NCBI GenBank assembly: GCA_041746255.1
Contig: JBGTHM010000116.1
Span: 1-28,713, forward strand
Direction: 5' to 3'
Length of the DNA: 28,713 nt
Source of the DNA: Fibrobacteria bacterium
GTDB lineage: Bacteria; Fibrobacterota; Fibrobacteria; UBA11236
Shown here in pieces: positions 3,855 through 28,532 of this stretch. The notes under the pieces were generated by a model that saw nothing but the letters and a program-made list of their open reading frames with translations, did no database searches and had not been told where the DNA came from. How positions within the stretch are numbered: position 1 is the first letter of the stretch; the number at the start of each line of letters is the position of its first letter. The translations under genes and the position numbers were made by a program.

Positions 3855-5150
3855 ATGAGCGCTAATCGAAAAATTGCAGTGGTGGGTTTGGGGTATGTCG
3901 GACTGCCTATTGTAGTCGCCTTCGGTCGCAAGGGTCCCGTGACGGGATTCGATATCAACACCTCGCGCATACGCGAGTTACGCGATCAATTCGATCGCAA
4001 TCGCGATGTCGCCGCCGAAGACTTCCGGGACTCGCAGGCGGTATTCACTTCCGACCCCGCCCAATTGCGCGAAGCCGATTTTCTCATCGTGGCGGTGCCC
4101 ACTCCCGTCGATGGCTCCAAACGTCCGGATTTGCGGCCGCTTATGGCCGCCTCGCGCACCGTGGGCCAGAATCTGGCGCGAGGCACCATCGTGGTCTTCG
4201 AGTCCACGGTTTTTCCCGGCGCCACCGAAGAGGTTTGCGTTCCCATTCTGGAAAAGGAATCGGGCCTTATTTGCGGGAAGGATTTCAAAGTCGGCTATTC
4301 CCCCGAGCGCATCAATCCCGGCGACAGCGACCATACTTTTACCAAAATCATCAAGGTCGTGTCGGGTCAAGACTCGGAGACTTTGGATACCGTGGCATCG
4401 GTCTACTCTTCGGTGGTTGACGCGGGCGTATATAAAGCCGCGTCCATCAAAGTGGCCGAAGCCGCCAAGGTGATTGAAAACACCCAGCGTGATTTGAACA
4501 TCGCCCTGGTCAACGAATTGGCTCTTATTTTCAACCGCCTGGGAATAGATACCACCGACGTGCTGGAAGCTGCAGGCACCAAATGGAATTTTCTGCGTTT
4601 CTCCCCGGGCCTGGTGGGTGGACATTGCATCGGAGTCGACCCCTATTATCTCACCGACAAGGCTGAACAAGTGGGCTATATCCCGCAGGTGATTCTTTCC
4701 GGAAGGCGCATCAACGACGGCATGGGAACATATGTCGCCGGGCAGGTGGTGAAAATGTTGTTGCAGGAAGGGCGCATCAGCGCATCGGCTTGCCAACCGG
4801 TGGTCACCGTCATGGGTCTTACCTTCAAGGAAAACGTACCCGACCTGCGCAATACCCGCGTGGTGGATATCGTGAACGAATTAAAATCGTATCATTTCCG
4901 GGTGCAAATCGTAGACCCCATGGCCTATGCCGAAGAGGCTGAAGAAGAATACGGTATCACGCTGACGAAAATGGACGACCTTGAGCCCGCGCATGCCGTG
5001 GTGATGGCCGTAGCGCATGCGCCCTTCCGGGAGGGTGGCTGGAAACTGGTGCAAAGCCTGTTGCTGGAGGGTAAGGGCGTAGTGGCAGATATCAAAAACA
5101 GCCTGCCCCGCGCCGATAAACCCGCAGGCGTGGAACTTTGGCGTCTTTAA
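3855..5150 (+). CDS. Nucleotide-sugar dehydrogenase (TviB/WbpO-like UDP-N-acetylhexosamine 6-dehydrogenase)
   Basis: GLGYVGLP Rossmann motif, [35 protein letters not shown]. Start moved to ATG 3855 because the longer ORF overlaps mrp. Confidence 0.92.
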
Positions 5151-5167
5151 GTTAAGGGATTTAAAAC

Positions 5168-6184
5168 ATGTCCGAAAAAATTCTGGTTACCGGCGCCGCC
5201 GGGTTCATCGGTTTTCATCTTTCCAAACTGCTCATGGAAAAAGGCCATGCCGTCATCGGCGTGGACAATCTCAACGAGTATTATGACGTGACTTTGAAAA
5301 AGGCGCGTCTGACCATTTTGCAGCAAAACCCGAATTTCGCTTTCGAGCGGCTCGACATCGCGGATGCCAAACGCTTTATGGATATGTTCGAAGCGCATCG
5401 CCCCCATCGCGTGGTGAATTTGGCGGCTCAGGCGGGGGTGCGCTACAGCATCGAAAACCCCCGCGCCTATATCGAAGCCAATATTTCCGGATTTTTAAAC
5501 GTTTTGGAAGCCTGCCGGCATAATCCGGTGGAACACTTGGTTTATGCCTCCTCGTCTTCGGTGTATGGGGCGAACCTGAAAAAACCGTCTTCCATTCACC
5601 ACAACATCGACCATCCGGTAAGCCTCTACGCCACCACCAAGAAGTCGAATGAGTTGATGGCCCATACTTATAGTCATCTCTATGGCACCCCCACCACGGG
5701 GCTGCGTTTTTTTACCGTTTACGGGCCTTGGGGCCGTCCCGATATGGCCTTGTTTCTGTTCACGAAAAACATTCTGGCCGGTAAGCCCATTGACGTTTTC
5801 AACGAAGGCCACCACCGCCGCGACTTCACTTATATCGACGATATTGTGGAGGGTGTGTACCGGACTTTATTCCATACGGCCCAGCCCAATCCGCAATGGG
5901 ACGGAATGGACCCCGATTGCGGCACCAGTTTCGCCCCCTATCGCGTTTACAATATCGGCAACGGCAAACCAGTGGAGTTGATGCGCTTTATCGAGCTGAT
6001 CGAAGAGAAATTGGGTAAAAAATCGATCAAAAACCTGCTTCCCATGCAGGCCGGCGACGTGGCTGAATCCCATGCCGACGTCGAGGATTTGATGCGCGAC
6101 GTGGGTTTTCGACCCAACACTCCGGTGGAAACGGGTATTGCCCGCTTTCTGGACTGGTATACGGGGTATTACGGTACGAAGTAG
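5168..6184 (+). CDS. NAD-dependent epimerase, UDP-glucuronate 4-epimerase/CapI-like
   Basis: [24 protein letters not shown] (YxxxK), [16 protein letters not shown]. Confidence 0.92.
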
Positions 6185-6195
6185 TTACTGGAACT

Positions 6196-6855
6196 TTACT
6201 GAAACCCGACCATGACGCGGCCGTCGAAATGGGGTTCGGGCAGCCGGGGCAGCGAGAGGTAGGCGGCCGCCGCGTGTTGGACTCGCATGGGAAACGCGCG
6301 CGCGTAGTCTTCCAGTTTGCGCGCCTCGATGCGATGGGCTAGCCGGAAGCCCTCGGAGCCTAGCCTTTCAATATCCCACTCTCCTTTTTCCAAATACCAA
6401 TAATCGAGCAAGGCCTTTTCCGGGTCTGCGACATAAATGGGTTCGAACCATAACCGGGTCCAAGAAAAACCGATGAAAAGTTCGGGCTTGATTTGGGAGT
6501 AAGTGAAGGTTCCGAAGTGGTTTACGATTTTGCGGCTGGGATGGGGAGTTACGCTGGTAAAGGCCCGGTGGTCGTGTGGCAAAAGGACATAATTGCACAG
6601 CACCCAATGGCCGGTGAGATAGGAGGGCTTGACCATTTGATTGGCGACTCCAAGGGCAGTGGGACCTTTTCGGTTGTAAATATCGGCGAGGGCGAATTGA
6701 CCTCTTTGGAGGGGGATGAGTTTCCCCGCGCGCACCCAGCGGTGGATTTGCACTTGCACATAGGGTTTGGGCTTGGGTATGAGGTCGTAAATTTGGCTGG
6801 AGGTCAGATAGTCGGGGTAGGGACCTATCTTTTTTAGAAAAGTGGGCCAATCCAT
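6196..6855 (-). CDS. AbiEi-like type IV TA antitoxin/transcriptional regulator, with no adjacent AbiEii
   Basis: WVRAGKLIPLQRGQF, PSYL...W.L, TSVT, FGTFTY, ADPEKALLD; paralogous to 21831..22463. Confidence 0.75.
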   Translation of the reverse strand: MDWPTFLKKIGPYPDYLTSSQIYDLIPKPKPYVQVQIHRWVRAGKLIPLQRGQFALADIYNRKGPTALGVANQMVKPSYLTGHWVLCNYVLLPHDHRAFTSVTPHPSRKIVNHFGTFTYSQIKPELFIGFSWTRLWFEPIYVADPEKALLDYWYLEKGEWDIERLGSEGFRLAHRIEARKLEDYARAFPMRVQHAAAAYLSLPRLPEPHFDGRVMVGFQ

Positions 6856-6860
6856 TCGCT

Positions 6861-6884
6861 GAACTTAGCATTTATGATAAGTTC
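6861..6884. promoter_or_regulatory. Palindromic operator just upstream of AbiEi
   Basis: GAACTTAGCAT-TT-ATGATAAGTTC (11-bp arms, one mismatch), 5 bp before ATG 6855. Confidence 0.7.
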
Positions 6885-7162
6885 GAGCGGAATTTTTCCA
6901 GTGCATGGGAAAAAAGGGGCCCGGGTTGGTTGGCGGTTCAGGCTAATTGAAGCTCCGTTGGGTTGGGGTATCTGACAGGTTGAGTCTTCGGTAGGTTAGT
7001 GGCGTTGGTGGGTCGAGTGGGCACTGGTGGTTCGGGGGACCGAGGCTGGGTTAGTGATGCCGGTGTGTCGGAGGCACGGCTGGGTTTGAGGGCGATGGCT
7101 GGTCGACTCTGGCCGATTGGGCATTTTTTTGGGTGGGGGCGCTGGCTGGTTCAGGCTCCCTG

Positions 7163-7315
7163 GGTTGAGGACCTGCACTGGTTGAGGACTCGCACTGGTT
7201 GAGGACTCGCACTGGTTGAGGACCTGCACTGGTTGAGGACTCGCACTGGTTGAGGACCTGCACTGGTTGAGGACTCGCACTGGTTGAGGACTCGCACTGG
7301 TTGAGGACTCGCACT
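7163..7315. repeat. Tandem repeat, 9 x 17 bp, GGTTGAGGAC(CT/TC)GCACT
   Basis: Nine contiguous units in two variants, followed by two degenerate AGTTGTGGCT units; no spacers. Confidence 0.95.
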
Positions 7316-7427
7316 AGTTGTGGCTCCCACTAGTTGTGGCTTCAGTTGGTTGGAGGCGCTGGTTGATTGGAGGTTGGACTATTGGTCAGGGGACCGTTCC
7401 TTTTTAACTGCACAAATTTAATCGGAC

Positions 7428-7490
7428 GAACTTATCATAAATGATAAGTTCAAGCGGAATTTTTTAAGTGTGTGGGAAAAAATAGGGTCG
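7428..7490. repeat. Second copy of the AbiEi upstream region with a perfect palindrome
   Basis: GAACTTATCAT-AA-ATGATAAGTTC (7428-7451) followed by AGCGGAATTTTT..AGTG..TGGGAAAAAA.GGG; imperfect direct repeat of 6861-6920. Confidence 0.85.
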
Positions 7491-7744
7491 GGGTCGGTTC
7501 AGAACGGGGTTAGGGGTACGGAAAGGATAGTAGCCTGGGGTACTAACTGCCTTCCGATCTTTTAATATCCCTTCCAGGTCTCCTGAGGCAATCTCCGTCC
7601 AACTTTTTTAGAATTTTGGGTCCATCAAGTCCGTAGGTCTACATCGGAAACCCGCTTCAGACTATAATCCGCCTAAACTTCGCCTCCCCTCCCTATCACT
7701 TTTCCTTGCCTCCCCCCCCTCCGAAGACTTGTTTGTGCCCCTGT

Positions 7745-9970
7745 ATGGGTACACCCCGATGCAACATTCTCTGGCTGGGAATCGCTCTATTTTCAGCCTT
7801 CCTTGCCGGAGAGCAGGTTTTCTCTCAGCCGACCCTGCCCGCTCTGGCCGCCCGGCAAGAGAAATCCCTCGATACTTTGGTGAATCCCTCCGGAGCACCT
7901 GTGCCGAATGAGGCAAAGAAGGCGGGCGAAGCCAGCGAGGCGAAGGACGCGAATGACTTCGACGGCCCCCAACCCTGGTACGGCCCCACCGAATTGCCGG
8001 GGATTCTGGCCGTTGCCACTCGGACCCACGGGCTGACCGCCGGAGCGCATGAGCCTGTCGGCGCCTTCCGATTTTCGCACAGCGAATTGGACGGCGCGAT
8101 TTCGTCCTTGGGCGACCCTTCGCGCGTGGTGCAGACCCTCCCGGGAGTGGGGCGCCCCAGCGATTGGCTGACCACGCTTATCGTACGCGGTGGCGCCGCA
8201 GACCAAAATGCCTATTTGCTCGACGCCATGCCTGCCTTAAAGGTGAGTCATTACGAAGAATCGCGTGGGGGCAACGGGGGCGTGGGCATGGTGAACCTGG
8301 CTTTCCTGGACGAACTCTCCTTCCACAACGGCGCCTTCGCGGCGCGGTATCCCGATAAACTTTCCAGCGTGGTGAAACTGAAGTTCCGCGACGGAAACAC
8401 CGAGCAGCATTCGGGGCGATTCACGGCCGATGTGACGGGCGTGGGCGGGGTGGTCGAAGGTCCCGTCGCAATGGGTGAAAGGACCGGATCTTATGCCTCG
8501 ACTTTCCGTTACAGCACCATGGCGCTTTTGCTCGATGCCGGCATTGTGGATGCCTTCGGGGTGCCGACCTATTACAACGGGCATGTGAAGCTGTACGCCC
8601 CTTTTCACAGGGGAGAACTGAGGCTGAACGCCCTGGGCGGGGAAGATGTATGGCTCAATAAAATTCTTCTAGGTCGGGGAGACATCCACCATGCCATGCT
8701 CAATTATTCCGGATGGACGGGAGCCCTGGGAGGTGAATGGAAACAGGAAAGCCGATTCGGACAAAGTGAGGTGGCCCTTTATTACAGCCAGCGCACGCAA
8801 GACGCCGAATTCTTTTTCACGGATAGGAACGGTCGGCGGATGGCGGATAGCCTCGGACACGAAGAACATGCGCGAGATGAGCGGGTAAGCCTTTCCATCG
8901 ATCACGGCTTCAATCCCCATCCACGCTTGGCGGTGCGGGTGGGAGGCCTGGAGGAATTCCTGCTGCGCGATTACCACCTCGACTATGCCAATCAGAAAAC
9001 CTATCTACCGCGACGCGATACGGTGATGGTTTATAGCGAAGGCCAAAGAGTGATCAGCCCATGGCATTCGCATACGGCTGTTTATGGCGAGGCGACCCTC
9101 AGCCTAGATGCCTGGAATTTCTACGCAGGCTATCGCCATCTCTATGAGGAATATACCGACAACCACGGCTTCGGTCCCCGGCTGGGCGCCAAGTTCCATT
9201 TCGGACCGGACCAGGCGCATGCATTCAAGGGAGCTTTCGGACGCCATACCCAAGCCCATAGTTTCGCGGACCTGGCCCTGCGCGACAATCCCCATGTTGC
9301 CGAATTGCCCTATAATTGGCAAACCGTGGCCGGCTATGAATGGCAGGCTCCCCAGGGAGTGCTGCTTTCCTTGGAGGCTTTCGACAAACAGGCTTTCCGC
9401 CTTCCCCGGCAACGCTTTTTCCTGGAGGGCGAGCGGTATCGATCCACCTTTGTCGACACGGGAAGAACTTCCAGTCGCGGTTTCGAAATCTACGCGAAAA
9501 AATCCAAGCTGCAGCGATTCTCCGGATCGGCCACCTACAGTTACTTATGGCATCGCGAAGCGAATGTGGAAGGCCGGGAACTCCCCACGCAATTCAGCGT
9601 GCCCCATCGCTTCAATGTCGCCGTGGGATACGATCTCCTGGCTAATCTAACGTTCAGCGCGCGCTACAGTTTCGCTTCCGGGCAGCCCTATGTTCCCTTC
9701 GACAGCACGCTGTCCTATCGCATGGGCACGGGAGTCTACGATTATCAGGAAGCCTACCAAGTGTCGGAACCGCATTTTGCCCGTCTGGACCTCCGCATGG
9801 AGTACCACCACTTTTTCGAGCAAATGGAGATGCGCACTTTCACCGAAGTCGCCAATGTGATGAACCGACCCAATCGGTTCGAGCGCATATGGGACCCACT
9901 GGACGGCGGAGATATGAACTTTCCCGGCATGGGTCTGCTGCCGATGGCAGGGGTGACGCTGGTGTTTTGA
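7745..9970 (+). CDS. TonB-dependent outer-membrane receptor
   Basis: Signal peptide; plug motifs DPSRVVQTLPGV, LIVRGG..DQN and GAFAARYPDKLSSV; beta-strand pattern; C-terminal Phe. Start codon uncertain. Confidence 0.85.
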   Translation: MGTPRCNILWLGIALFSAFLAGEQVFSQPTLPALAARQEKSLDTLVNPSGAPVPNEAKKAGEASEAKDANDFDGPQPWYGPTELPGILAVATRTHGLTAGAHEPVGAFRFSHSELDGAISSLGDPSRVVQTLPGVGRPSDWLTTLIVRGGAADQNAYLLDAMPALKVSHYEESRGGNGGVGMVNLAFLDELSFHNGAFAARYPDKLSSVVKLKFRDGNTEQHSGRFTADVTGVGGVVEGPVAMGERTGSYASTFRYSTMALLLDAGIVDAFGVPTYYNGHVKLYAPFHRGELRLNALGGEDVWLNKILLGRGDIHHAMLNYSGWTGALGGEWKQESRFGQSEVALYYSQRTQDAEFFFTDRNGRRMADSLGHEEHARDERVSLSIDHGFNPHPRLAVRVGGLEEFLLRDYHLDYANQKTYLPRRDTVMVYSEGQRVISPWHSHTAVYGEATLSLDAWNFYAGYRHLYEEYTDNHGFGPRLGAKFHFGPDQAHAFKGAFGRHTQAHSFADLALRDNPHVAELPYNWQTVAGYEWQAPQGVLLSLEAFDKQAFRLPRQRFFLEGERYRSTFVDTGRTSSRGFEIYAKKSKLQRFSGSATYSYLWHREANVEGRELPTQFSVPHRFNVAVGYDLLANLTFSARYSFASGQPYVPFDSTLSYRMGTGVYDYQEAYQVSEPHFARLDLRMEYHHFFEQMEMRTFTEVANVMNRPNRFERIWDPLDGGDMNFPGMGLLPMAGVTLVF

Positions 9971-9971: not shown

Positions 9972-10664
9972 CTAAATAACCGCTTTCATTTTTTCTTCAA
10001 TGAACTTTGCCCTTTCACTCGCAGAAGTATCAAAACCGAGGTGCCCCGAAATCGACCTTCTGAAATTGTCATCTCTCAACAGCGTTCGGAATGATTCGGA
10101 AATAAAACCTTTAACTAGATCCGGCGCCGCGAGAATTTCTTCAATATTATCATTCCCATCAATTACCGTTATGATATCCTCGATATCATGGTCGTTCCAA
10201 TAATCACCTTGCCCTCTGTCCTTTGAAGCTTCGAGCTTCGTCGCCAGGAAATACGCCAATGGTAGGATGTTTATAGCCAGTCCCGATGGCAATGTCTTTT
10301 CCAGAGCGTGCTTCCTGCCTTCCCTGAACCAGGGTATATCTCTATACCCCATAATTGCGCAATTATCGGGAATGGTATCTACAATTACGCCTTTAAACTT
10401 CCACCTGACCATTGGGGCGTTTTCCGACATGTCGTTGGAAAATCCAAGTAGCCGAAGTTTTTCACTGAATCTAGCGAATTCAACCGGGGTAGATATTTGT
10501 ACGATACAATCCACATCTTTTGTCGGCCTGATGTCTGTGAGGTCCGGATTTTCAACATAGAACTGCGTGCAAGCACCACCGATAAAAATCGCATCTTTAG
10601 CCATTTCTTTAAGGCCAACGACGATTACTTCCAAGCGTTCGAGGTTCTCACTCATATTCGGCAT
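9972..10664 (-). CDS. Putative nucleotidyltransferase (AbiEii/pol-beta-like), candidate toxin
   Basis: FIGGAC...RPTKDVD (GG + DxD), VDTIP, FLATKLEA..RG, HDIEDI; overlaps the stop of the upstream wHTH gene. Confidence 0.72.
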   Translation of the reverse strand: MPNMSENLERLEVIVVGLKEMAKDAIFIGGACTQFYVENPDLTDIRPTKDVDCIVQISTPVEFARFSEKLRLLGFSNDMSENAPMVRWKFKGVIVDTIPDNCAIMGYRDIPWFREGRKHALEKTLPSGLAINILPLAYFLATKLEASKDRGQGDYWNDHDIEDIITVIDGNDNIEEILAAPDLVKGFISESFRTLLRDDNFRRSISGHLGFDTSASERAKFIEEKMKAVI

Positions 10665-11181
10665 GGCCGTTCCTCTCTTCGAGCAAGGCGTTCAGCTTTT
10701 GGATTGCCAGTTTTCTCTCCCTTGCCTTTCCTATCCTAATCGCATCAACCAACGCCAATAGATCATATAGTTTCCTGTCCTTGAGAGCCGCTTCAGGAGC
10801 ATGCTCACTAAGCGGCCTGATGCCTGTTCCCCTGATCTTTCCCTTAGCATATGGCCACACATAAACATCCTGTTCTTCCATTACCAATTCGCCGTTAAGG
10901 ACCGGCGCCGAATGGGAAGTGGGTACTCCTCTCTCAAGGGCGCCGGTTCTTGCTGGAAAGGAATATTTCACTCCATGAATGAGGAATTCGGACATGGCAG
11001 CGGGTAGAACTGTTCGGGTATGCTCATCGAATAGTCGCGAAAGTTTAAGTCTTTTGACCGATGCATGAGTCTCACCAACGCTTAAACCAACTTCACTCGA
11101 TAGCTGAGAATAAGTCCAGCTCCTGTTTTCACTCTGGAGAATGAATAGCTTGCATAAGACAACCACGTCCAAGGATTTCAA
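10648..11181 (-). CDS. Winged-HTH protein, candidate antitoxin/regulator
   Basis: WTYSQLSSEVGLSVGETHASVKRL helix-turn-helix; EFLIHGVKYSFP, RGVPTSHSAP, YVWP, LVDAIRIG. Start set at TTG 11181 after an AAGGAGG RBS, matching paralog 26485..27036. Confidence 0.75.
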   Translation of the reverse strand: MKSLDVVVLCKLFILQSENRSWTYSQLSSEVGLSVGETHASVKRLKLSRLFDEHTRTVLPAAMSEFLIHGVKYSFPARTGALERGVPTSHSAPVLNGELVMEEQDVYVWPYAKGKIRGTGIRPLSEHAPEAALKDRKLYDLLALVDAIRIGKARERKLAIQKLNALLEERNGHAEYE

Positions 11182-11202
11182 CTCGACCTCCTTTTTATTC
11201 AA

Positions 11203-11286
11203 TATTCATGAATCGTGAATATACCCGGAATAATACGCTTTTATGCTGAAATACGCAATATATTCATTATTCATGAATCGTAAATA
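11203..11286. promoter_or_regulatory. Two copies of a near-palindromic operator
   Basis: TATTCATGAATCGTGAATA (11203-11221) and TATTCATGAATCGTAAATA (11268-11286). Confidence 0.7.
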
Positions 11287-11401: not shown

Positions 11402-12517
11402 ATGCCAAAAGTCATGCTCGTTTGCGGGGCCCGCCCCAATTTCATGAAGGTGGCGCCCATCCTGGCAGCCATGAAAAAATCCGGGCGTCTCAGCCCCTAC
11501 CTGGTCCATACCGGTCAACACTACGATGAAAAAATGTCGAAGTCGTTCTTCGATCTGTTGAATATTCCCCGGCCCGACATCGATTTGGAAGTGGGGTCGG
11601 GCACCCATGCCGAACAAACCGGAAAAATCATGGTGGCCTTCGAAAAGGTATGCCAAAGTGAAAAACCCGACCTCGTACTCGTAGTGGGCGATGTCAACTC
11701 GACCATGGCCTGCACTATCACCGCCAAAAAGTTGTGGATACCCGTGGCGCATGTGGAAGCGGGCCTCCGGTCCTTCGATATGAAAATGCCGGAAGAAATC
11801 AACCGTATGGTAACCGATGCCATTTGTGATTTATTTTTTACTACCGACCCCGATGCCAATGCCAACTTGAAAACGGCAGGCGTTGAGGCAAGTAAAATCC
11901 ACTTCGCGGGCAATGTCATGATTGATACTTTGCTGGCCAATCTGGAAAAGGCCCGGGACAATTCCATTCTGGAAGACTTGGGAGTCACCCGAAAGAAATA
12001 TGCTTTCCTGACCATGCACCGCCCTTCCAACGTGGATAACCAAGAGATTCTCCACGCGCTGCTGGGCGCTTTCGAATATATCCAGAAAAAGATTCCCATC
12101 GTATTCCCCGCGCATCCCCGCACTTTGAAGATGATGGATGCTTTCGGATTTTTCCCATGGCTTAAAAGCATGGAAAATCTGAAGGTTTGCGAGCCACTGA
12201 ATTACCATCAAATGCTGAAGCTCAACTCGGAATCACTATTCGCCCTGACGGATTCCGGAGGTTTGCAGGAAGAAACGACGGTGTTGGGCATCCCCTGCAT
12301 CACCATGCGGGAGAATACCGAGCGGCCGGTAACCGTGGAAGTGGGCACCAGCGAAGTGGTGGGGGCCGATCCGGAGAAAATCAAATCCGCGGCAGACAGG
12401 ATATTGGCTGGCCGGTGGAAGAAAGGCGGCATTCCCGAAGGGTGGGATGGGAAAGCCGGGGAGAGAATCGTGCGGGGAATTGAAGTCTATTTGGGCGCAC
12501 TTGACGACGGCGCGTGA
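11402..12517 (+). CDS. wecB: UDP-N-acetylglucosamine 2-epimerase (non-hydrolysing)
   Basis: GARPNFMK, HTGQHYD, HVEAGLRS, PEEINR, TDSGGLQEE, RENTERP. Confidence 0.95.
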   Translation: MPKVMLVCGARPNFMKVAPILAAMKKSGRLSPYLVHTGQHYDEKMSKSFFDLLNIPRPDIDLEVGSGTHAEQTGKIMVAFEKVCQSEKPDLVLVVGDVNSTMACTITAKKLWIPVAHVEAGLRSFDMKMPEEINRMVTDAICDLFFTTDPDANANLKTAGVEASKIHFAGNVMIDTLLANLEKARDNSILEDLGVTRKKYAFLTMHRPSNVDNQEILHALLGAFEYIQKKIPIVFPAHPRTLKMMDAFGFFPWLKSMENLKVCEPLNYHQMLKLNSESLFALTDSGGLQEETTVLGIPCITMRENTERPVTVEVGTSEVVGADPEKIKSAADRILAGRWKKGGIPEGWDGKAGERIVRGIEVYLGALDDGA

Positions 12518-13956: not shown

Positions 13957-13979
13957 TATAATCTAGACAGTCTAGATTA
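13957..13979 (+). promoter_or_regulatory. -10 box overlapped by a perfect palindromic operator of the Phd-VapC operon
   Basis: TATAAT at 13957-13962; TAATCTAGAC-A-GTCTAGATTA at 13959-13979; AGGGAG RBS follows. Confidence 0.8.
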
Positions 13980-15661: not shown

Positions 15662-15713
15662 AATTACGATCAGATCGTAATTGGGTCAGGTTCCGACCCA
15701 ATTACGATCTGAT
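15662..15713. promoter_or_regulatory. Nested perfect inverted repeats upstream of the AAA_14 pseudogene
   Basis: AATTACGATC-A-GATCGTAATT (15662-15682), and 19-bp arms ATCAGATCGTAATTGGGTC / GACCCAATTACGATCTGAT (15669-15713). Confidence 0.7.
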
Positions 15714-18575: not shown

Positions 18576-18588
18576 CAAGTCCTTTAAG

Positions 18589-20256: not shown

Positions 20257-20644
20257 TGTGATTAGGGAATAATAACAGTATTAGCGATTTTTAATTCTTA
20301 AGTACAAGCTCCGTGTTATCGGGTAGCCGATTCAAGTTGCTCAGCAGGTCAACTAGCCCACCCTTTTTCGTCGCTATACTTAATTCGCGTATAGCGAAAA
20401 CAAGCCAAAATCCCCGGAAATACCCTAAAAATGCCGAAAAATACACATTTAAGCTATACGCAATTTGAGTATACTCGTAAAATCATTGGGGCGCCTCCGA
20501 ACCCGAGCTCCACAGGATCACCCAAAGCCCAGCGTCTTTAAGAGCCGAAATTTGCCCTCATCACCTTGTCTCCACCGTAGCGAAAGTTATTTAGTGAACG
20601 GTGGTCGGTTCTCTTATTTTTTACTCCAAAATGGAGTATTATTC

Positions 20645-20835
20645 CCGGAAAGAGTTTTCCCTGTATTGCTCCAGGTTCTCGAATTCGCAGGGCCCACCGG
20701 TCCGCATTCATGGAAAAATTATGGGACTTTGAAAGGTCGGAAAAATCAAAAACTTTATCACTGCCACTTAACTTCGGATCATAAATATGTTGCGTGCTGG
20801 GAATTCCACAAAAAAACAATCGCCATTAAAAGCCA
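20645..20835 (+). pseudogene. Remnant of a RelE-superfamily-like toxin
   Basis: GP..WKNYGTL...YHCHL...YVACWE motif; no credible N-terminus, and the C-terminus runs into the XRE gene. Confidence 0.6.
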
Positions 20836-21173
20836 CAACCCTGCGATTCAGGCCGGGAACACCCTCTAATGTTGCTTCGGAGATTATTCAGAAGTATGGG
20901 TTCTGGCTGGAATCCGATGAGGCAAGCGTCGAATATGCAAAAACGTCAATTAGTAAGCGGATAGATGCTCGCATGAGTCCCGGCCTCTGGCTTAGGACCT
21001 TGCGTAAAGCACAGGGTTTAAGTCAGGCGCAGCTGGGAAAATTAGTAGACGAAGGCGGCCCTGTTTCCGCTTCGAGAATTTGTGACTGGGAAAAGGAGAG
21101 TCGGGCCATTCCTAAAAAAGCCGCCAAGAAGTTCTCGGCTATTTTCAATGTTCCCCTCGAGAAATTTATTTAA
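20787..21173 (+). CDS. XRE-family HTH antitoxin/regulator; N-terminus possibly chimeric
   Basis: SPGLWLRTLRKAQGLSQAQLG...RICDWEKESRAIPKKAAKKFSAIFNV. Confidence 0.8.
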   Translation: MLRAGNSTKKQSPLKATTLRFRPGTPSNVASEIIQKYGFWLESDEASVEYAKTSISKRIDARMSPGLWLRTLRKAQGLSQAQLGKLVDEGGPVSASRICDWEKESRAIPKKAAKKFSAIFNVPLEKFI

Positions 21174-21197: not shown

Positions 21198-21838
21198 TCA
21201 TTGAAAATAAGCCTGTTCCAATGATTTAAGCAGAAATTCCCTTTTCAAAAAACGCTCTTCCTCGGGATTCAGCAGAAAGGGTGCGACGTCCCGCAGAATT
21301 TGCTTCTCGTCCATACCCTGCAGCTTGTTCCGAACCGCCTCGATTACGGATTCCAGAGTTGGAAAAACCAAATCCGCCTGGGTTTGCCGGACCGCAGCTT
21401 GAAAGAGAGGCAGCGATGGGATGATTTTTTTGCGGAGGAAAAAGAATACGTCATAATAATCACGGCCTTTGTCATAACCCCGGAAAAGAAAGGCGTGGAG
21501 CTTGGTGGCAAAGAGAGAGGGTAGATCATAGTGGTTAATCATGAATAAAATGGGTTCCTGGAATAAATACTCCTTCACGACTCCGCCGGCAGGTGGCCGG
21601 GTATCCACTTCTACCTTGATTGAAAGCTTCTCGGTTTTAATCGGCGACAACTTCAGAGAATGAAGCAATCCACCGAAGCGCAAGAAGAAGGAGTCAATCC
21701 TCCCGTAAAGGCCAAATGCCGGCGGTATCCTGCATCGTCCAAGGCTTGGAGCACCAGCCATTGCAGGTATTCCCGCAGGACATTCCGTTGCTGATGAAGC
21801 GGTGCGGCAGCTACAAAAGCACTCAAAACCTCAAGCAT
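21198..21838 (-). pseudogene. AbiEii nucleotidyltransferase toxin pseudogene
   Basis: N-terminal NVLREYLQ..LAFTGG joins out of frame near 21699 to IDSFFLRF..IKVEVDTRPP..LFATKLHA..KGRDYYD; the family RxSEDLDF motif is absent. Confidence 0.85.
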
Positions 21839-22463
21839 GGGGCCTCCCAATTAATTCCAGAACGATGGCCGCTCCATTCCACACCCGCGACGAATTGAAG
21901 CGGAGAAGGGCCTGGCGTAGACGCGTCTTTTTCAATTTATCCAAATTCTGCAGCCGATAACCTTCCAACAGCAGCTCAGCAGTGATGGCCTTCGACTTGG
22001 GAATAGATAGGTGGATGAAGTCGAGAACAGCCTTTTCGGGGGTTGCAAGATAATGCGGCGCGGGCAGATTTTCGCGGGTGAACCCGAAGAAAAAAGCCGG
22101 GTCGACGTGGCGGTATACGAAGTCGCCGAACTCATTTCGGAAACGCGCAGTCTTGAGAGTAGTCACGGATGTGATGCTCTCCACCGCTTCGGGAATAAGC
22201 TCGTAACGGCTCAATGCCCATTCCAGGCTGATGTATGAGGGGCGGTAGAGGGGCTCGGCCAGTTCCAGGGCGGAGAGAGGGCGACGCCGATGGTCGGGGC
22301 CCAAGGTATATAACCCCTTTTTAAGCCGGATGACCTTTCCTTGCCGGGACCAATGCGATAGCTGCACCAATTCGTGCTTGGGTGGCAGCCCTTCCATATG
22401 CAGGTCCTGAGGCCTAAAATAGGGAATACCCGCCATGCGGGTGCGTAGGTCTTCGAATTTCAT
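21831..22463 (-). CDS. AbiEi type IV TA antitoxin
   Basis: GKVIRLKKGLY, PSYISLEWALSRYELIPE, ITSVT, ATPEKAVLDF; overlaps the AbiEii start. Confidence 0.88.
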   Translation of the reverse strand: MKFEDLRTRMAGIPYFRPQDLHMEGLPPKHELVQLSHWSRQGKVIRLKKGLYTLGPDHRRRPLSALELAEPLYRPSYISLEWALSRYELIPEAVESITSVTTLKTARFRNEFGDFVYRHVDPAFFFGFTRENLPAPHYLATPEKAVLDFIHLSIPKSKAITAELLLEGYRLQNLDKLKKTRLRQALLRFNSSRVWNGAAIVLELIGRPHA

Positions 22464-22663: not shown

Positions 22664-23599
22664 CTACATCCGCACACTACCCTTGATAAAATCATCGTAG
22701 GCCAATTTAATCCCCTCCCGCAATTTCACCTTGGGTTGCCATCCCATTTTTTTCAGCCGGGTCACATCCAAAAGTTTGCGGGGAGTGCCATCGGGTTTCG
22801 CGCTGTCGAACACCAGATCTCCGGAAAACCCGACGACGTCGGCCACCGTTTCGGCCAGTTCTTTGATGGTGACTTCCTGGCCGCTGCCCACATTGATGGT
22901 TTCGTCGTCCAAATACTCATTCATCAGGAATACACAGGCATCGGCCAAATCGTCCACGAAAAGAAATTCCCTTTTCGGAGACCCGGTACCCCAGACAATA
23001 AACGAAGAGGTCTTATTCGCCTTGGCTTCATGCACTTTTCGGATAAGCGCCGGCAACACATGGGCGTTCATCAAATCGTAATTGTCGTTGGGGCCATAAA
23101 GATTGGTGGGCATGCAGGAAATGAAGGAAGTATGGTATTGCTTATTATAAGCCTTACACATTTTTATGCCCGCGATCTTGGCCAGGGCATAAGGCTCGTT
23201 GGTCGGCTCCAACTCACCGGTCAACAGACACGACTCCGGCATGGGCTGGGGCGCCAATTTGGGGTAGATACACGAACTCCCCAGGAACAACAATTTCCTC
23301 ACCCGGAAAATATAGGCCGCATGGATGATGTTGGTTTGGATGCAAATGTTGCTGTAAATGAAGTCCGCCGGATAGGTATTGTTGGCATAAATACCGCCAA
23401 CCTTGGCCGCAGCCAGAAAGACATAGTCGGGCTTGGTCGCTTTGAAAAAATCAAACACAGCGGCTTGGCTGGTCAAATCCAATTCCTTAGAAGAATGCCC
23501 GATAATATTGGTATAACCCTGCGCTTGCAGCCGACGGGCTATGGCGCTGCCCACCATCCCATACAACCCTGCCACAAAAATTTTTGCGTTCTTTTCCAT
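22664..23599 (-). CDS. fcl: GDP-L-fucose synthase
   Basis: [66 protein letters not shown]. Confidence 0.95.
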
Positions 23600-23842: not shown

Positions 23843-25990
23843 TCACACCCTCATCACCGAATTGGAGGCAATGGACTCCAAAATCCGAAAAGTGCACCGG
23901 GTGGTATTGGCGAGCGATTCAAAAGGAATCGGCGCCGGGGTCTTACCCAACACGGCGTCACAAAAAGCCGCCAGCTCCGCAGCGAAACCCTTGTCCATAC
24001 CCGAAGACTTGAACTTGCTCTTCTTCCCGCTCCGGGTAAAAGTCGTGAGGTGAAAATCCTCGCAAGTAGCGATGCCTCGCCCACTGAACACTTCGATAAA
24101 TTCCTTGGCACAGGACGGATCGCCATTGGCCAGATAATCGATGGTGGATCGCGCGCCATTGGCATGCCGCAAGATGATACTGACATTGTCCTCGTTATAA
24201 TCTCCCGGTGTCTCGAGCACGGTGGCGTAAACTTCTTCCACACCGGCTCCCGCAACGAAAGCGCAAAGATCCACGAAGTGGCAAACCTCACCAATTACGC
24301 GGCCACCGCCCAACTCCGGGTCTTGAATCCAACTGGTTTTGGGAATGGCTCCGGCATTGACGCGATAGCGAATCACAGGTTTCTCTCCAGAAACCTCTAC
24401 CCACTGGCGCAATTTGGCGGCATGCGACGAAAACCGGCGGTTGAATCCAACCATTAAAACAGGTGGATTCGCCTCCCGGGAAATCCCCGCGCTAATCGCT
24501 TCCAGCTCCGCCTCTCTGAGACATAAAGGCTTTTCCACGAAAACATGTTTGCCCGTCTCCAGGGCTTTGAGCACCGCGGCGGCATGGAGATTATGCCGGG
24601 TGGTGATGAATACGGTGTTGACTTCGGAATCGTCCAGCAAAGCGCCGGAGTCGCCGTAGATTTTGCCGATGCCGTACTTTTCCGCCGTCCCCCGGGCCGA
24701 GGCTCCGGTAGCGGTGGCGATGGCTTCGAGGCGTACGTTTTCCATCTTGCCCAGTTTGGGAAGCAACACCGACTTGGCGAAGTTTCCCGCGCCTACCAAC
24801 CCGATTTTTATGGAAGCGGATGTCTTCGCCGGCCCTTTGCTTAAGGTGACATGGCTGGGCAATTGCTTTTGGAAGTCATACTTCAGCAATATGCCCAGAT
24901 AAGGTTCGCCGGCCTTGCCTTCGAATAACGCATAAGCCTTGAGCGCGTCGTCGAAAGGAAACCGGTGCGTTACCAGTTCACCCGGAGTTACCTTCCCGTC
25001 GGCGCATAATTCCAGGAAGGTTTGCATATTGCGCCCTTCGGTCCATCGCACCAGGGAATAGGGGTAGTCGATGCCCTTCTCTTCGTAAACCGGATCGTAG
25101 CGGCCGGGCCCATAGGACATGGACAGCCTGAGGTCGAGCTCCTTTTTATAATACTCATTGCGCGGAATGTTCATGCCCACCATGCCGACAACCACCACCT
25201 TGCCTTTGTAACGGCAGACTTCTCCGGCCAGTTCTATGGGCTGGTTGCTGGAGGTGGAAGCGGTAATGATGATGGAATCCAAGCCATGGCCATCGCTCAC
25301 ATTTTTGGCCATGGAGGCGAAGTTGTCGGTATGGATGGCCCAATCAGCGCCGAGCTTGCGGGCGAGTTGCATTTTCTGTTCGGAGATGTCCATGCAAATC
25401 ACCTTGGCGCCGGAGGCTTTCAAGATTTGCACGGTAAGTTGGCCCAACAATCCCAGCCCCACGACTCCAACGCGATGGCCAAGCTCCACTTCGGCTTGAC
25501 GCACGCCCTGCATGGCGATGGCCCCTACGGTGGCGAAGGAAGCAGCCTCCACATCCAGGCCCTCGGGTAATTTGACCGCGAGGTTTTGGGGAACGTAGTT
25601 GACTTCGGAATGGTTGGCATAACCGGCGCCGCCGCAGGCCACCCAATCCCCGACTTTGAACTGGGAGGCATAGCGGCCGACGGCCATGACTTGTCCGGCG
25701 CAGGAGTAACCCAGGGGGATGGGGTTGTCGAGTTTGGTGAAAACTTTTTCGAGGGTTTGTTTGACGCCCTCTTTTTTCATTTTGGCGACGACTTGGTTGA
25801 CCAAATCGGGGCGGGCCATGGCTTTGCCGACCAGGGATTTCTTGGCCAGGTCGACGAGCATTTTTTCGGTGCCGGCGCTGACCAGGGAGCAGGCGGTGCG
25901 GACAAGGATGCCGTTGTCGTCGCAGGCGGGGGTGGGGACTTCGGTGAGTTCCATTTCACCGGTACGGTAGGATTGGATGATTTGCAGCAT
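23843..25990 (-). CDS. Bi-domain oxidoreductase (MDR/Zn-type dehydrogenase + Gfo/Idh/MocA), polysaccharide-cluster type
   Basis: SLVSAGTE, GLGLLG, SYGPGRYD; second domain GAGNFA, HVFVEKP, VGFNRRFS, GEVCHFVD. Confidence 0.9.
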   Translation of the reverse strand: MLQIIQSYRTGEMELTEVPTPACDDNGILVRTACSLVSAGTEKMLVDLAKKSLVGKAMARPDLVNQVVAKMKKEGVKQTLEKVFTKLDNPIPLGYSCAGQVMAVGRYASQFKVGDWVACGGAGYANHSEVNYVPQNLAVKLPEGLDVEAASFATVGAIAMQGVRQAEVELGHRVGVVGLGLLGQLTVQILKASGAKVICMDISEQKMQLARKLGADWAIHTDNFASMAKNVSDGHGLDSIIITASTSSNQPIELAGEVCRYKGKVVVVGMVGMNIPRNEYYKKELDLRLSMSYGPGRYDPVYEEKGIDYPYSLVRWTEGRNMQTFLELCADGKVTPGELVTHRFPFDDALKAYALFEGKAGEPYLGILLKYDFQKQLPSHVTLSKGPAKTSASIKIGLVGAGNFAKSVLLPKLGKMENVRLEAIATATGASARGTAEKYGIGKIYGDSGALLDDSEVNTVFITTRHNLHAAAVLKALETGKHVFVEKPLCLREAELEAISAGISREANPPVLMVGFNRRFSSHAAKLRQWVEVSGEKPVIRYRVNAGAIPKTSWIQDPELGGGRVIGEVCHFVDLCAFVAGAGVEEVYATVLETPGDYNEDNVSIILRHANGARSTIDYLANGDPSCAKEFIEVFSGRGIATCEDFHLTTFTRSGKKSKFKSSGMDKGFAAELAAFCDAVLGKTPAPIPFESLANTTRCTFRILESIASNSVMRV

Positions 25991-26018: not shown

Positions 26019-26306
26019 TTATGCCGCTCTTTTTATTTCCAATGCTTCGTAGGCGGGGAACATAATTATGGCGGGGTGAACATTAAAAGCCATGGCTAAT
26101 TGTTCCGCTCTTCGCTTCCCTATTTCCACCCTATTATTTTCCAACAAACTGAGATTAGTACTTGTTATCCCACATCGTTCCGCCAATTCTTTTTGCGTCC
26201 AACTTTTCAATTCGCGAAGCATGCGAATTACCTCGCCGGTACTGAGATTGGCCATAGGCTTTGCCGGTGCGAAATTCTTTCTGATTTTGGGCATATTTTT
26301 CTTCAT
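26019..26306 (-). CDS. XRE/HigA-like HTH antitoxin
   Basis: GEVIRMLRELKSWTQKELAERCGI..NLSLLENNRVEIGK; start coupled (TAATG) to an upstream toxin remnant. Confidence 0.85.
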   Translation of the reverse strand: MKKNMPKIRKNFAPAKPMANLSTGEVIRMLRELKSWTQKELAERCGITSTNLSLLENNRVEIGKRRAEQLAMAFNVHPAIIMFPAYEALEIKRAA

Positions 26307-26504
26307 TATTTACGTGGTGTAATTTCCAATATGTACACCAAGATTTCTTCTTTTTCTATTAGATTCTTCAGTAACTCGCGGAGGTTCTTCCAAAACATCG
26401 GTGATATAAAAAGGAATGCTGACCCCACCCGCCAGGAAGCAACGCTCCTTCAACTCCCCTAAAGCCAAGGCGACCTGTTCAATGTCATTGTGGGTCGGGG
26501 CCAT
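26305..26504 (-). pseudogene. Chimeric remnant: nucleotidyltransferase 5' end fused to a RelE-like toxin 3' end
   Basis: FLAGGVSIPFYITD..PRVTE (paralog of 9972..10664) stops before DxD. Beyond ~26364 another frame reads LIEKEEILVYILEITPRK*, ending at TAATG. Confidence 0.75.
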
Positions 26505-27036
26505 GAATTTTTCCCTTTATGGTTTCCGCCGCCCAATTGCGTTCACGCGCTCCCCCTATTCGGAGGAGGTCAAGGCACACAAGCAGCTCATACATTTCCC
26601 GATTCTTTAACGACTCCATGGTGGGCTTGCCGCGTACAAACCGCAATTGGCAAGGGTGTATGGGCTCAAGACTGTTACCCTTATGGGTTCCTTGCGGATC
26701 AGGCCAAACATAATCCTGGGTATTGGAATTCCTGAATGTGTCGGCCAAAAAGGGTGCACTATGAGCCGTCGGTATACCCCGAGCGCGCATGCCGATTTTT
26801 GGAGGGAATACATACTTGAAGCCGTGAATGATGAATTCAATGAAGCGTGCTTCAGGTGCATTCCAGGATGCGGACATCCCTTTGCTAAGTAAACCGGACT
26901 CCCGAAGGCGGTTTAATGACAAATGACATTGGGAAAGGGATAACCCTGTTGCCTGGCTTATAGCCGCGTGAGTCCAGGACACCTCAGGGTGGAGCCGGAT
27001 CAGGAGCAGGATGATTATGTCTTGACCTTTTATCAT
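26485..27036 (-). CDS. Winged-HTH protein, paralog of 10648..11181
   Basis: WTHAAISQATGLSLSQCHLSLNRL, EFIIHGFKYVFP, RGIPTAHSAP, YVWP, LDLLRIG. Confidence 0.78.
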   Translation of the reverse strand: MIKGQDIIILLLIRLHPEVSWTHAAISQATGLSLSQCHLSLNRLRESGLLSKGMSASWNAPEARFIEFIIHGFKYVFPPKIGMRARGIPTAHSAPFLADTFRNSNTQDYVWPDPQGTHKGNSLEPIHPCQLRFVRGKPTMESLKNREMYELLVCLDLLRIGGARERNWAAETIKGKIHGPDPQ

Positions 27037-27113
27037 TCTATTTTCTAGAAATTAATATTTTAGGCTAAAATATATAAATAGTCCAATTATTTCTCATTTC
27101 TAGAAAATAGAAT
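27035..27113. promoter_or_regulatory. Pair of 18-bp perfect inverted repeats upstream of the wHTH gene
   Basis: ATTCTATTTTCTAGAAAT (27035-27052) and ATTTCTAGAAAATAGAAT (27096-27113). Confidence 0.7.
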
Positions 27114-27149
27114 TTATTGATTTCCAAAGGGATGGGGTTAAATCCTGTC

Positions 27150-28532
27150 CTAAAGCCCCTCTGCAATCCAGACCTCCAGAATCTTATCCAGATTCCACAA
27201 CAGATACAGCGGCACATTGAGCAATTGGTACTGGACCGGATCGCCTTGGGTGGTCGTCACTTTGACTTCCATCGCACCCGGTGGATTGGCATCGCAACGC
27301 ACGGCCCACTTCAAGTTCTTGTCGTACATGAATTGGTGCAGGCCTTTCATGGCTCCCGTAGCACCTGATTTGAGTTCCACCGGAATGATTCGATCTTTCC
27401 ATGCCACCAAATAGTCGATTTCCCCGGGACGTCCTCCCTCGCGCTGCCAGTAGTGCAAATCCCCATCGCCGGTACCGTCGGTTTTCCGGAGCCGTAAATG
27501 CTGGGCAGCGGTTTGTTCAGCGATACGGCCACGCAGATCCGGAGAGAGGTCCCCCTCCGAAGGGAACGCCCCACTCGCAGGCGTAGCCAGCAAAGCATGC
27601 AACAGGCCTACATCCAGGAGCACTGCTTTACGGAATGAATCCTTGCTTTCCGCTTCCAGCGGCAAACCGTTGGCCGGGCTGTATTTGACCAGGTGGCAGA
27701 GTCGGGACGCAGCCAATAATTCCAGCGCCCGTTTGGCCTGATGTTGCTTTACGCCTTCACCTGCGCGGGCATAAACGAACTTGTGTCCAATGGATCCCGC
27801 TACGCTCTTTAGTACCGAGTCCAAAATTCCGGTTTGCATGCGACCACTATATTTGGCGAAATCGGCACGAAACGCCGTCATCAAATCTTTTTGAAGTTCT
27901 CTGCAATGCGCAGGTGAGGCGCCCGCAACATCCGCAGCCACGACTTCGGGCATTCCGCCGATCATGCAGAATCGGTGAAACCAAACCCGGGCACCGTCAT
28001 GGGCCGCCACAGGGAGAGCCTTTCCCGGACGCCAATCGGAGAGGGCGTTTAGTATCCCTCCTTGGCCATGGGCCATAAGGAATTCTTCAAATCCCATGGG
28101 ATCCAGATTGCGAAACGCCACCCGGCCTACAGGCATGCTAAAGTCGTGATCGGCCAAAGTAAATTCCAGGAGGGATCCCACCGCAACAACGGGTAATTCG
28201 GGCATTTCTTCCGAAAACCATCTCAGCTTGGCCAAAACATCACCGGCTTCCTGAATTTCATCGAGAAAAAGCAGACTTTTCGAAGGGCTGACTTCCTTAT
28301 TGAATAGTAGAGACAACTCGCCCAGAATTTGGGCTGGGTCATTTCCGGCAAAGTAGCGTTTATATTCCGGATTTCTTTCGAAATTGACTTCGATCAGATC
28401 GAGCTTTGCGTTGGCGGCCAGCTTCCGGACCAGCCAGGTCTTTCCCACTTGGCGGGCACCTCTTAAAATGAGCGGTTTCCGCTGCTTCTGGGTCAACCAG
28501 GTGTGAAAATGGGGTCGAAAAAGGCGTTCCAT
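27150..28532 (-). CDS. AAA_14 ATPase with DUF4143 / PD-(D/E)xK-like C-terminus
   Basis: GARQVGKT, LFLDEIQ, GSLL, GGMPE, LDVGLL, EIDY...IPVELKSG. Confidence 0.88.
   Translation of the reverse strand: MERLFRPHFHTWLTQKQRKPLILRGARQVGKTWLVRKLAANAKLDLIEVNFERNPEYKRYFAGNDPAQILGELSLLFNKEVSPSKSLLFLDEIQEAGDVLAKLRWFSEEMPELPVVAVGSLLEFTLADHDFSMPVGRVAFRNLDPMGFEEFLMAHGQGGILNALSDWRPGKALPVAAHDGARVWFHRFCMIGGMPEVVAADVAGASPAHCRELQKDLMTAFRADFAKYSGRMQTGILDSVLKSVAGSIGHKFVYARAGEGVKQHQAKRALELLAASRLCHLVKYSPANGLPLEAESKDSFRKAVLLDVGLLHALLATPASGAFPSEGDLSPDLRGRIAEQTAAQHLRLRKTDGTGDGDLHYWQREGGRPGEIDYLVAWKDRIIPVELKSGATGAMKGLHQFMYDKNLKWAVRCDANPPGAMEVKVTTTQGDPVQYQLLNVPLYLLWNLDKILEVWIAEGL

Follow-up and report, generated by a model that had tools for sequence, protein, structure and literature searches.

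Can a surface-polysaccharide locus double as a collecting site for toxin-antitoxin (TA) and defense genes, and do such genes protect the cell, hold newly acquired glycan genes in place, or merely accumulate there? The question is raised by a window of 28,713 bases, the whole stretch of DNA analyzed here, which is the entire contig C116 of a Fibrobacteria draft genome (G000; 4.59 Mb in 130 contigs) and is cut at both ends. The host is an uncultured hot-spring bacterium; the sole public run that contains the sequence is labelled as a hot-springs metagenome and is probably its source. From a dehydrogenase/epimerase gene pair to the end of the contig, ten small cassettes of TA, abortive infection (Abi), and candidate defense genes are interleaved with glycan biosynthesis genes. 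On balance, we favor the reading that the window covers a permissive recombination hotspot within a polysaccharide locus, which takes up two kinds of horizontally moving cargo and in which the cassettes subsequently erode, toxin first.

Ten cassettes among glycan genes

The open reading frames (ORFs) of the window were scanned with Pfam (30 ORFs), NCBIfam (25), and PADLOC (18), and PADLOC models matched 13 of the 18 scanned proteins at an E value of 0.01. These scans reproduced, almost item by item, the gene order of the original prediction, made from the sequence alone, as well as its estimate of about ten cassettes from five families: ten were found, belonging to AbiE, PDC-M21, the DUF4143 ATPases (PDC-S01), Phd-VapC, and RelE-like/XRE. 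One item did not survive, namely, a RelE remnant beside the second XRE gene; alignment gave nothing, and no recognizable toxin was found next to this gene. The cassettes, which occupy both strands, are composed as follows (exponents after database or domain names are E values).

6196-6855, minus strand: AbiEi_1, an orphan winged helix-turn-helix (wHTH) gene (PADLOC AbiEi, 6e-33)
9972-10664, minus strand: PDC-M21B, nucleotidyltransferase-like (PADLOC); overlaps M21A_1 by 17 nt
10648-11202, minus strand: PDC-M21A_1, wHTH gene (PADLOC; E values of the M21 pair, 8e-44 and 8e-47)
12561-13823, minus strand: S01_1, intact AAA_14 and DUF4143 ATPase of the PDC-S01 type (Pfam, PADLOC)
13993-14232, plus strand: Phd (Pfam, 2e-16)
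14229-14651, plus strand: VapC, PIN domain (Pfam, 5e-12)
14838-15638, minus strand: DUF4143 ATPase, 5'-truncated (PADLOC profile positions 130-291 of 422 only)
about 20639-20869, plus strand: RelE-like remnant inside ORF 20465-20869, its own N terminus missing
20787-21173, plus strand: XRE_1 (HTH_3, 2e-8)
21198-21761, minus strand: AbiEii without its N-terminal third (PADLOC profile positions 105-267 of 270)
21831-22463, minus strand: AbiEi_2, intact (PADLOC AbiEi, 6e-46)
26019-26306, minus strand: XRE_2 (HTH_3, 9e-12)
26310-26504, minus strand: 64-aa ORF, possible N-terminal remnant of M21B (weak similarity, E value of 0.003)
26485-27036, minus strand: M21A_2, intact (PADLOC M21A, 3e-34)
27150-28532, minus strand: S01_3, intact AAA_14 and DUF4143 ATPase of the PDC-S01 type (PADLOC, 7.5e-125)

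The first PDC-M21 pair is intact, and its M21B gene, the genome's only copy, carries a GG...DVD motif, which we take to be a nucleotidyltransferase signature. Phd and VapC are also both full length and overlap by 4 nt, consistent with a type II Phd/VapC module; homologous pairs occupy nonorthologous places in five relatives. Five of the seven two-gene cassettes combine an intact helix-turn-helix (HTH) gene with a toxin that is missing, shortened, or disrupted. AbiEi_1 has no AbiEii partner and is orphan and equally placed in the congener G001 (L110), and the partner of AbiEi_2 is cut down, leaving neither window copy as a complete AbiEi-AbiEii pair. The RelE-like gene is disrupted, XRE_2 is toxinless, and the second M21B is reduced to the 64-aa ORF. 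In addition, one of the three DUF4143 ATPases (14838-15638) is truncated and lacks the AAA_14 P-loop domain; a full-length 389-aa ortholog, 77% identical, lies in the same interval of the relative G007. The RelE-like remnant aligns to residues 20 to 78 of an intact 88-aa paralog on contig C18 (38% identity; E value of 7e-11). On C18 (L108:942-1536), this intact RelE-like toxin, which has no Pfam or PADLOC match, is accompanied by a 123-aa XRE antitoxin.

Because paralogous cassettes within the window are only 34 to 36% identical, and because the G+C content of the cassette stretches (0.47 to 0.49) lies below that of the genome (0.531), the cassettes probably arrived independently. The window as a whole has a G+C content of 0.526.

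The glycan genes among which the cassettes lie, together with the left flank and an outer membrane protein gene, are listed below.

1332-2168, minus strand: sigma-70 (Pfam)
2321-2650, minus strand: DUF971 (Pfam)
2647-3777, minus strand: Mrp/ApbC (Pfam)
3735-5150, plus strand: ORF of a TviB-like UDP-GlcNAc 6-dehydrogenase, likely start at 3855 (NCBIfam TIGR03026, 369 bits)
5168-6184, plus strand: TviC-like epimerase (Pfam Epimerase, 4e-57)
7706-9970, plus strand: 754-aa outer membrane protein, TonB-dependent-receptor-like (Plug, E value of 0.011)
11402-12517, plus strand: wecB, UDP-GlcNAc 2-epimerase (TIGR00236, 338 bits)
15793-17367, plus strand: Wzi-like 524-aa protein (via its G001 ortholog)
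17364-18710, minus strand: WcaI-like GT4 glycosyltransferase (Pfam/NCBIfam)
18589-20256, minus strand: heparinase II/III-like (Pfam/NCBIfam)
22664-23599, minus strand: fcl (NF047922, 503 bits against a cutoff of 500)
23843-25990, minus strand: fused Zn-ADH/GFO oxidoreductase (Pfam)

XRE_2 sits 28 nt upstream of the oxidoreductase and shares the strand of the oxidoreductase-fcl run. Two of the labels are indirect. The weak Plug match of the 754-aa protein and its language-model look-alikes (Atlas, score 0.99), which carry Plug/TonB_dep_Rec_b-barrel, hint at a TonB-dependent receptor; its G001 ortholog is 71 to 75% identical. The 524-aa protein has no family match of its own, and its 78% identical G001 ortholog matches Wzi with an E value of 7e-7, just under the cutoff.

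To compare the window with the rest of the genome, nine TA/defense families were searched in six frames across all 4.59 Mb. Hits, given as the genome total and the number in C116, were as follows: DUF4143, 16 and 3; PIN, 6 and 1; AbiEii, 4 and 1; AbiEi, 4 and 2; PDC-M21A, 2 and 2; PDC-M21B, 1 and 1; Phd, 4 and 1; ParE, 1 and 0; and MazE, 2 and 0. Eleven of the 40 hits fall in C116, which makes up 0.63% of the genome and would be expected to hold ~0.25, a ratio that is inflated in that seven of the nine families were picked because they are present in the window. The same counts refute the explanation that there is no local feature and that the genome is TA-rich throughout. DUF4143 ATPases are indeed fairly common, but the PIN, Phd, AbiEii, AbiEi, MazE, and ParE families occur only one to six times each genome-wide, which leaves this explanation with next to no probability.

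Elsewhere in the genome, as seen from 290 annotated ORFs around the other hits, cassettes are mostly single and lie between unrelated genes, such as a Phd-PIN pair flanked by aconitase and dihydroorotate dehydrogenase. The only further clusters are one on contig C34 (three DUF4143 genes plus MazE/PIN) and one on contig C90 (three cassettes in a 60-kb polysaccharide locus). A general association between glycan loci and cassettes was considered and rejected. With 88 GT1/GT2 hits mapped genome-wide, 3 of the 27 cassettes outside C116 lie within 10 kb of a glycosyltransferase gene, compared with 5.4 ± 2.1 for random points, and seven clusters of four to eight glycosyltransferase genes lack any cassette within that distance. 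The enrichment is a property of one locus, not of glycan loci generally. The proposal that the glycan locus serves as a hotspot is thus borne out locally, against the genome and in several relatives (see below), but not as a general link between glycan genes and cassettes.

The interval in relatives, cassette decay, and competing explanations

The locus was compared with the congener G001 and with the family relatives G003, G004, G007, G009, G013, G015, and G018. The sigma-70/Mrp/dehydrogenase/epimerase block (in the window, 1332-3777 and the genes that follow) is syntenic across the family, and the dehydrogenase and epimerase of G001 are 91% and 93% identical to those of the window. A further homolog search with the dehydrogenase gave identities of at most 67%, from a scatter of phyla, and the Atlas look-alikes pointed to no clear phylum. 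Downstream, four relatives share a conserved block of a ~596-aa protein without family match, fcl, and a Wza-type exporter. How far the 596-aa gene lies from the epimerase varies greatly, as follows.

G003: 73 bp
G004: 2.1 kb
G009: about 3.9 kb
G007: 16.4 kb
G000 (window): at least 22.5 kb, measured from the epimerase to the contig end

The protein that opens the downstream block is conserved at 527 to 606 aa, has no Pfam or PADLOC match, and always precedes the fcl/Wza genes; its copies (L119:8893-10683, L120:10821-12641, L125:6847-8589, L122:9140-10723, and L090:13034-14737) are 37 to 61% identical.

At least one cassette is present in five of the eight family genomes annotated at the locus, a count that leaves out G012; G018 was used for one operon only. 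The cargo varies. The G004 interval holds a DUF4143 ATPase, and a PIN-Phd pair lies between the dehydrogenase and epimerase, which are adjacent in G000; G003 has a PIN gene in the latter place. The G007 interval holds HipBA, two DUF4143 genes, a Fic (SoFic)/PDC-S24 gene, a HigB-like/XRE pair, BrnT, MazE, and nucleotidyltransferase fragments. The G007 locus also has a PD-Lambda-2_B fragment and, between dehydrogenase and epimerase (L121:8019-11649), a 905-aa DpdE/ZorD-like SNF2 helicase (E value of 1e-118) with a 303-aa protein without match. Because the interval varies in size among the relatives and holds other cassettes or none, it appears to be a recombination hotspot.

The inner glycan genes differ as well among G004, G009, and G003. 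Turnover of the glycan cargo is suggested because a 220-nt relic of the 3' end of the window oxidoreductase lies near the left end of contig C90 and because Wzi-like fragments occur in G007. In G018, the heparinase, deacetylase, GT4, and wecB genes form one codirectional run with wecB last; in the window, the heparinase/GT4/wecB run is broken up by cassettes and partly inverted.

Seven cassette genes have G001 orthologs at 71 to 94% amino acid identity: AbiEi_1, which again adjoins the epimerase; the first ATPase, S01_1, in two copies; the last, S01_3; AbiEi_2; and both XRE genes. The G001 contigs here measure 1.8 to 4 kb, so gene order can be read only in pieces, possibly from more than one strain. 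In these pieces, AbiEi_2, S01_3, and S01_1 are consecutive, and XRE_2 adjoins XRE_1; in G000, glycan genes separate these cassette genes. Protein searches of G001 (completeness of 100%) recovered neither the heparinase-like gene nor M21B, and wecB gave only a 31% identical match. At the genus level, it is thus the cassettes that appear to be shared and the glycan genes that vary. The expectation that glycan genes would be conserved while cassettes turn over holds only at the edges of the interval; its interior varies in genes of both kinds, and the expectation is even reversed, because G001 shares cassettes but not the inner heparinase-like and wecB genes.

The same comparison bears on the quality of the assembly. 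A chimera of cassette-rich mobile DNA and a glycan locus might be suspected in a metagenome-assembled draft of 130 contigs when the contig ends in a repeat and when only one public run, probably the assembly's own source, contains the sequence. Against this, the independent G001 assembly repeats the epimerase/AbiEi_1/outer membrane protein, outer membrane protein-ATPase, ATPase/AbiEi_2, and oxidoreductase/ATPase junctions; cassettes lie in the same interval on long contigs in G007 and G004; and the window holds no internal long repeat where a chimera could form. An assembly or binning artefact is accordingly very improbable.

According to another explanation, put forward in the original prediction, the cassettes are addiction modules that stabilize newly acquired glycan genes, as loss of a TA-bearing segment would kill the cell. 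The interleaved order fits this, as does the position of the intact Phd-VapC and M21AB pairs, which adjoin wecB. However, most toxins are decayed, and because the toxin is lost or damaged in five of seven two-gene cassettes, these cannot addict. The retention of cassette genes in G001, where wecB, the heparinase-like gene, and M21B are not shared, weakens the idea further. A study on Photorhabdus likewise reports that TA systems did not conserve chromosomal neighborhoods (PMC13617665). We regard stabilization as a marginal prospect.

The ratio of nonsynonymous to synonymous substitutions (dN/dS) between G000 and G001 (Nei-Gojobori) was calculated for the shared genes. It equals 0.25 for AbiEi_1, 0.07 for AbiEi_2, 0.11 for XRE_1, 0.125 for XRE_2, 0.06 and 0.04 for S01_1 against its two G001 orthologs (90% and 94% identical), and 0.07 for S01_3 (G001 ortholog 86% identical), compared with 0.02 to 0.15 for flanking and glycan genes. 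dS is 0.4 to 1.9 throughout, the cassette genes resembling the flanking genes, and is near saturation, so the ratios are rough. Purifying selection apparently includes HTH genes whose toxins are gone in both species.

This selection on HTH genes and ATPases could also be expected of an adaptive defense island beside phage-receptor genes, in which working abortive-infection and defense systems would be linked to glycan variants by selection, with receptor variants and immunity inside the cell being inherited or exchanged as one. AbiE is an established abortive-infection family, and the PADLOC matches to 13 of 18 proteins, as well as the DpdE/ZorD-like helicase, SoFic/PDC-S24 gene, and PD-Lambda-2_B fragment in G007, point the same way. 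The PDC families, moreover, were defined by their embedding inside defense systems (bioRxiv 10.1101/2024.01.29.577857). However, five of the seven two-gene cassettes have a missing or damaged effector, one ATPase of the three is truncated, and PDC-S01 and PDC-M21 are described as candidates (PMC12988326; bioRxiv 10.1101/2024.01.29.577857). In addition, other glycan loci of the genome are not enriched in cassettes, and three relatives have the glycan locus without a detected cassette. A working defense island therefore seems unlikely, if clearly less far-fetched than stabilization or a chimera.

Equally tentative is the idea that the toxinless HTH genes (two AbiEi, two XRE, and one M21A) and the DUF4143 ATPases have become domesticated parts of the glycan locus, serving as switches or as anti-addiction immunity. 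As switches, their autoregulated promoters might drive or gate neighboring glycan genes, for instance, at XRE_2 upstream of the oxidoreductase-fcl run; as immunity, they could allow the cell to accept incoming glycan modules that carry matching toxins. If this were true, glycan loci would host embedded cassettes as defense systems do, and the cassettes would help to rewire the locus.

Returning to the hotspot reading, the window would represent the left flank of one conserved envelope-polysaccharide locus together with its enlarged variable interval, the locus being ordered as sigma-70/Mrp, UDP-GlcNAc dehydrogenase, epimerase, interval, 596-aa protein, fcl, and Wza-type exporter. Horizontally arriving DNA would become fixed in this permissive, high-turnover interval, probably by homologous recombination in the conserved flanks, and an insertion sequence (IS)-like element and short dispersed repeats are present as well. 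The cargo would consist of accessory glycan genes and of small autonomous cassettes (TA, Abi, and defense candidates) with a putative promoter and operator of their own. Resident cassettes would then erode toxin first, while their HTH partners and the ATPases would stay under purifying selection, some of them probably kept for a function of their own. Directly observed are the gene content, the local enrichment, the changing size and cargo of the interval among relatives, the pattern of decay, and the selection estimates.

Several points weigh against this reading. Besides the inflated enrichment ratio and the piecewise order in G001, no cassettes were found at the locus in G009, G013, and G015 at a Pfam/PADLOC E value of 1e-5. 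The window contains no recombinase gene, and the body of the IS-like element is unassembled, so how DNA enters the site, how permissive the site is, and what the cassettes may do today can only be inferred. Contig C90, which carries the missing right flank (see below), is one of 18 candidate ends for a join to C116. Finally, because dS resembles that of flanking genes and dN/dS is 0.04 to 0.25, the shared cassette genes appear to be old, constrained residents rather than fast-turning junk.

Palindromes, repeats, and the contig end

Perfect inverted repeats with arms of at least 8 nt number 8 in the 3,573 intergenic bases of the window and 7 in its 25,140 coding bases. The repeats and related elements are listed below.

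6861-6925 and 7428-7492: direct copies of a 65-nt dispersed repeat, bracketing a tandem array
7146-7340: tandem array of ~11 units of 17 nt in a strongly G-skewed stretch
11196-11286: two 26-nt operator-like imperfect palindromes upstream of M21A_1, facing wecB
13959-13979: palindrome with 10-nt arms, preceding Phd-VapC
15664-15718: inverted repeat with 24-nt arms, upstream of the truncated ATPase
20356-20594: member of a dispersed intergenic repeat family, directly adjoining the RelE-like remnant on its 5' side
27036-27115: paired 25-nt palindromic repeats upstream of M21A_2, different from the M21A_1 pair
28572-28713, plus strand: terminus of an IS-like element with four copies of a ~20-nt subterminal repeat

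The claim that most cassettes have their own, different palindrome stands for six of the ten, which carry differing operator-like inverted or paired repeats upstream: both M21A genes, the first ATPase, Phd, the truncated ATPase, and, weakly, AbiEi_2. It does not extend to XRE_1, XRE_2, and the last ATPase, upstream of which no operator-like repeat was found. The two 26-nt repeats at M21A_1 are 92% alike, lie 65 nt apart, and are overlapped by a sigma-70-like match. At AbiEi_1, the palindrome is part of a dispersed repeat that recurs on at least eight other contigs. The 65-nt repeat opens with a palindrome with 11-nt arms and has copies on at least eight other contigs. Two ORFs on the tandem array (6996-7280 and 7051-7314) have no family match.

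Scans of the window returned 19 sigma-70-type promoter matches (16.7 ± 4.8 in shuffles) and 20 terminator-like sites (27.1 ± 5.6 in shuffles). They carry no weight except for four promoter-like matches that overlap cassette palindromes. A tRNA scan of the window and an Rfam search at the gathering threshold each gave 0 matches.

The dispersed repeat at 20356-20594 has at least eight other copies, on C56, C117, C2, C73, C5 (two), and C90 (two). Members of its family measure 140 to 240 nt, with a duplicated internal palindromic motif and a terminator-like start. The two copies on C90 flank an MqsA-like cassette. As a vehicle for cassettes, this 239-nt repeat was rejected, since the six remaining copies are found between large genes and have no small cassette beside them. 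Within the window, no repeat family common to the cassettes was found.

The last 140 bases of the window recur at 17 other contig ends with at least 99% identity, and a related 43-nt stretch, the other terminus of the element, occurs at 18 further contig ends, including the left end of C90. The contig thus stops in one terminus of an IS-like element of ~18 copies, which causes the assembly break. The body of this element is on no contig of this genome, and a scan of metagenome contigs with 44 nt of the terminus found no exact match. Matches of 20 nt to the terminus at nine metagenome loci were discarded as candidates, each being a single motif copy without further similarity. The original prediction had noted no integrase or attC-like shared repeat. 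This stands insofar as Pfam detected no recombinase domain among the 30 window ORFs (the contig is cut at both ends, and a gene may lie beyond) and no repeat is shared by the cassettes; the IS-like terminus is the exception.

The missing right flank lies on C90, which may be joined to C116 across one copy of the IS-like element. The left end of C90 bears the related IS terminus, the orientations fit a C116-IS-C90 join, and the genes for a 567-aa protein, Wza, and Fcl on C90 encode products 46%, 61%, and 86% identical to those of the G004 block. The three further cassettes on C90 lie just upstream of these genes. C90 (L089-L091) carries a ~60-kb polysaccharide locus with two Wza-type exporters, Wzz, Wzy, Wzi, two flippases, gmd, and a second fcl, as well as genes for PEP mutase (phosphonate decoration) and asparagine-synthase-like and HisF/HisH-like genes.

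Comparison with known systems

Chromosomal integrons collect many small cassettes in one array, TA modules among them. They are recognized by an adjacent intI gene, an attC inverted repeat per cassette, and mostly promoterless, co-oriented cassettes. The window differs from such an array: it has no integrase and no shared attC-like repeat, orientations are mixed, and upstream regions are operator-like. An integron cassette array was rejected because no recombinase domain and no cassette-shared repeat were found in the window; the differing upstream palindromes and the use of both strands agree with this.

The closest likeness is to TA islets, which, in Belot et al. (2026; PMC13617665), are small, high-turnover spots holding several type II TA modules, often without a recombinase. 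There, erosion is toxin first, the neighborhood is not stabilized, and TA and antiphage loci lie mostly apart. The window shares the clustering of modules between conserved genes, the toxin-first decay, and the lack of neighbor stabilization. It differs in that the spot is an interval of a polysaccharide locus where glycan genes come between the cassettes, AbiE and defense candidates occur among the TA modules, and the orphan HTH genes look long constrained.

Defense hotspots, as outlined in studies on Escherichia coli (PMC10121019) and Pseudomonas aeruginosa (PMC10250203), hold a fixed position between conserved genes with differing defense cargo and are sometimes empty. The interval described here likewise has a fixed, flanked position, defense-type genes above the genome average, and cargo that varies, from 73 bp to 16.4 kb in four relatives, or is absent. 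Compared with those hotspots, its cargo consists mostly of TA modules and candidates, half of it is decayed, and the flanks and some of the cargo are surface-glycan genes.

A study on Alteromonas (PMC4898812) describes glycotype clusters that are swapped between strains at a conserved place, termed replacement islands, and additive islands, mostly at tRNA genes, that collect cassettes including a post-segregational killing system. With conserved flanks and inner glycan genes that differ between genomes, the interval resembles a replacement island. However, the two island types are separate in Alteromonas, whereas here additive cassettes and replacement glycan genes share one tRNA-less interval.

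PDC-S01 and PDC-M21 are "guilt-by-embedding" candidates found nested in Hma, BREX, DISARM, and type I restriction-modification systems (bioRxiv 10.1101/2024.01.29.577857; PMC12988326). The same protein families occur here as small nested genes and are candidates in both settings, but their host is a polysaccharide locus. As they nest in a nondefense operon, with partners mostly decayed, caution is advisable for screens based on guilt by embedding or guilt by association.

No description of TA cassettes interleaved with glycan biosynthesis genes was found in the literature, the coverage of which was incomplete and gives no proof of absence. As a chromosomal landing pad for selfish genes, the window is a clear case and a rather ordinary one, of a known kind (TA islet, defense hotspot), here in a new setting. 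The apparent purifying selection on toxinless antitoxin-type HTH genes is the only point that could yield novelty. The locus also provides a concrete counterexample to the view that TA modules stabilize neighboring genes, and it shows one conserved interval taking up glycan genes together with selfish and defense cassettes, which are usually described as the contents of separate island types.

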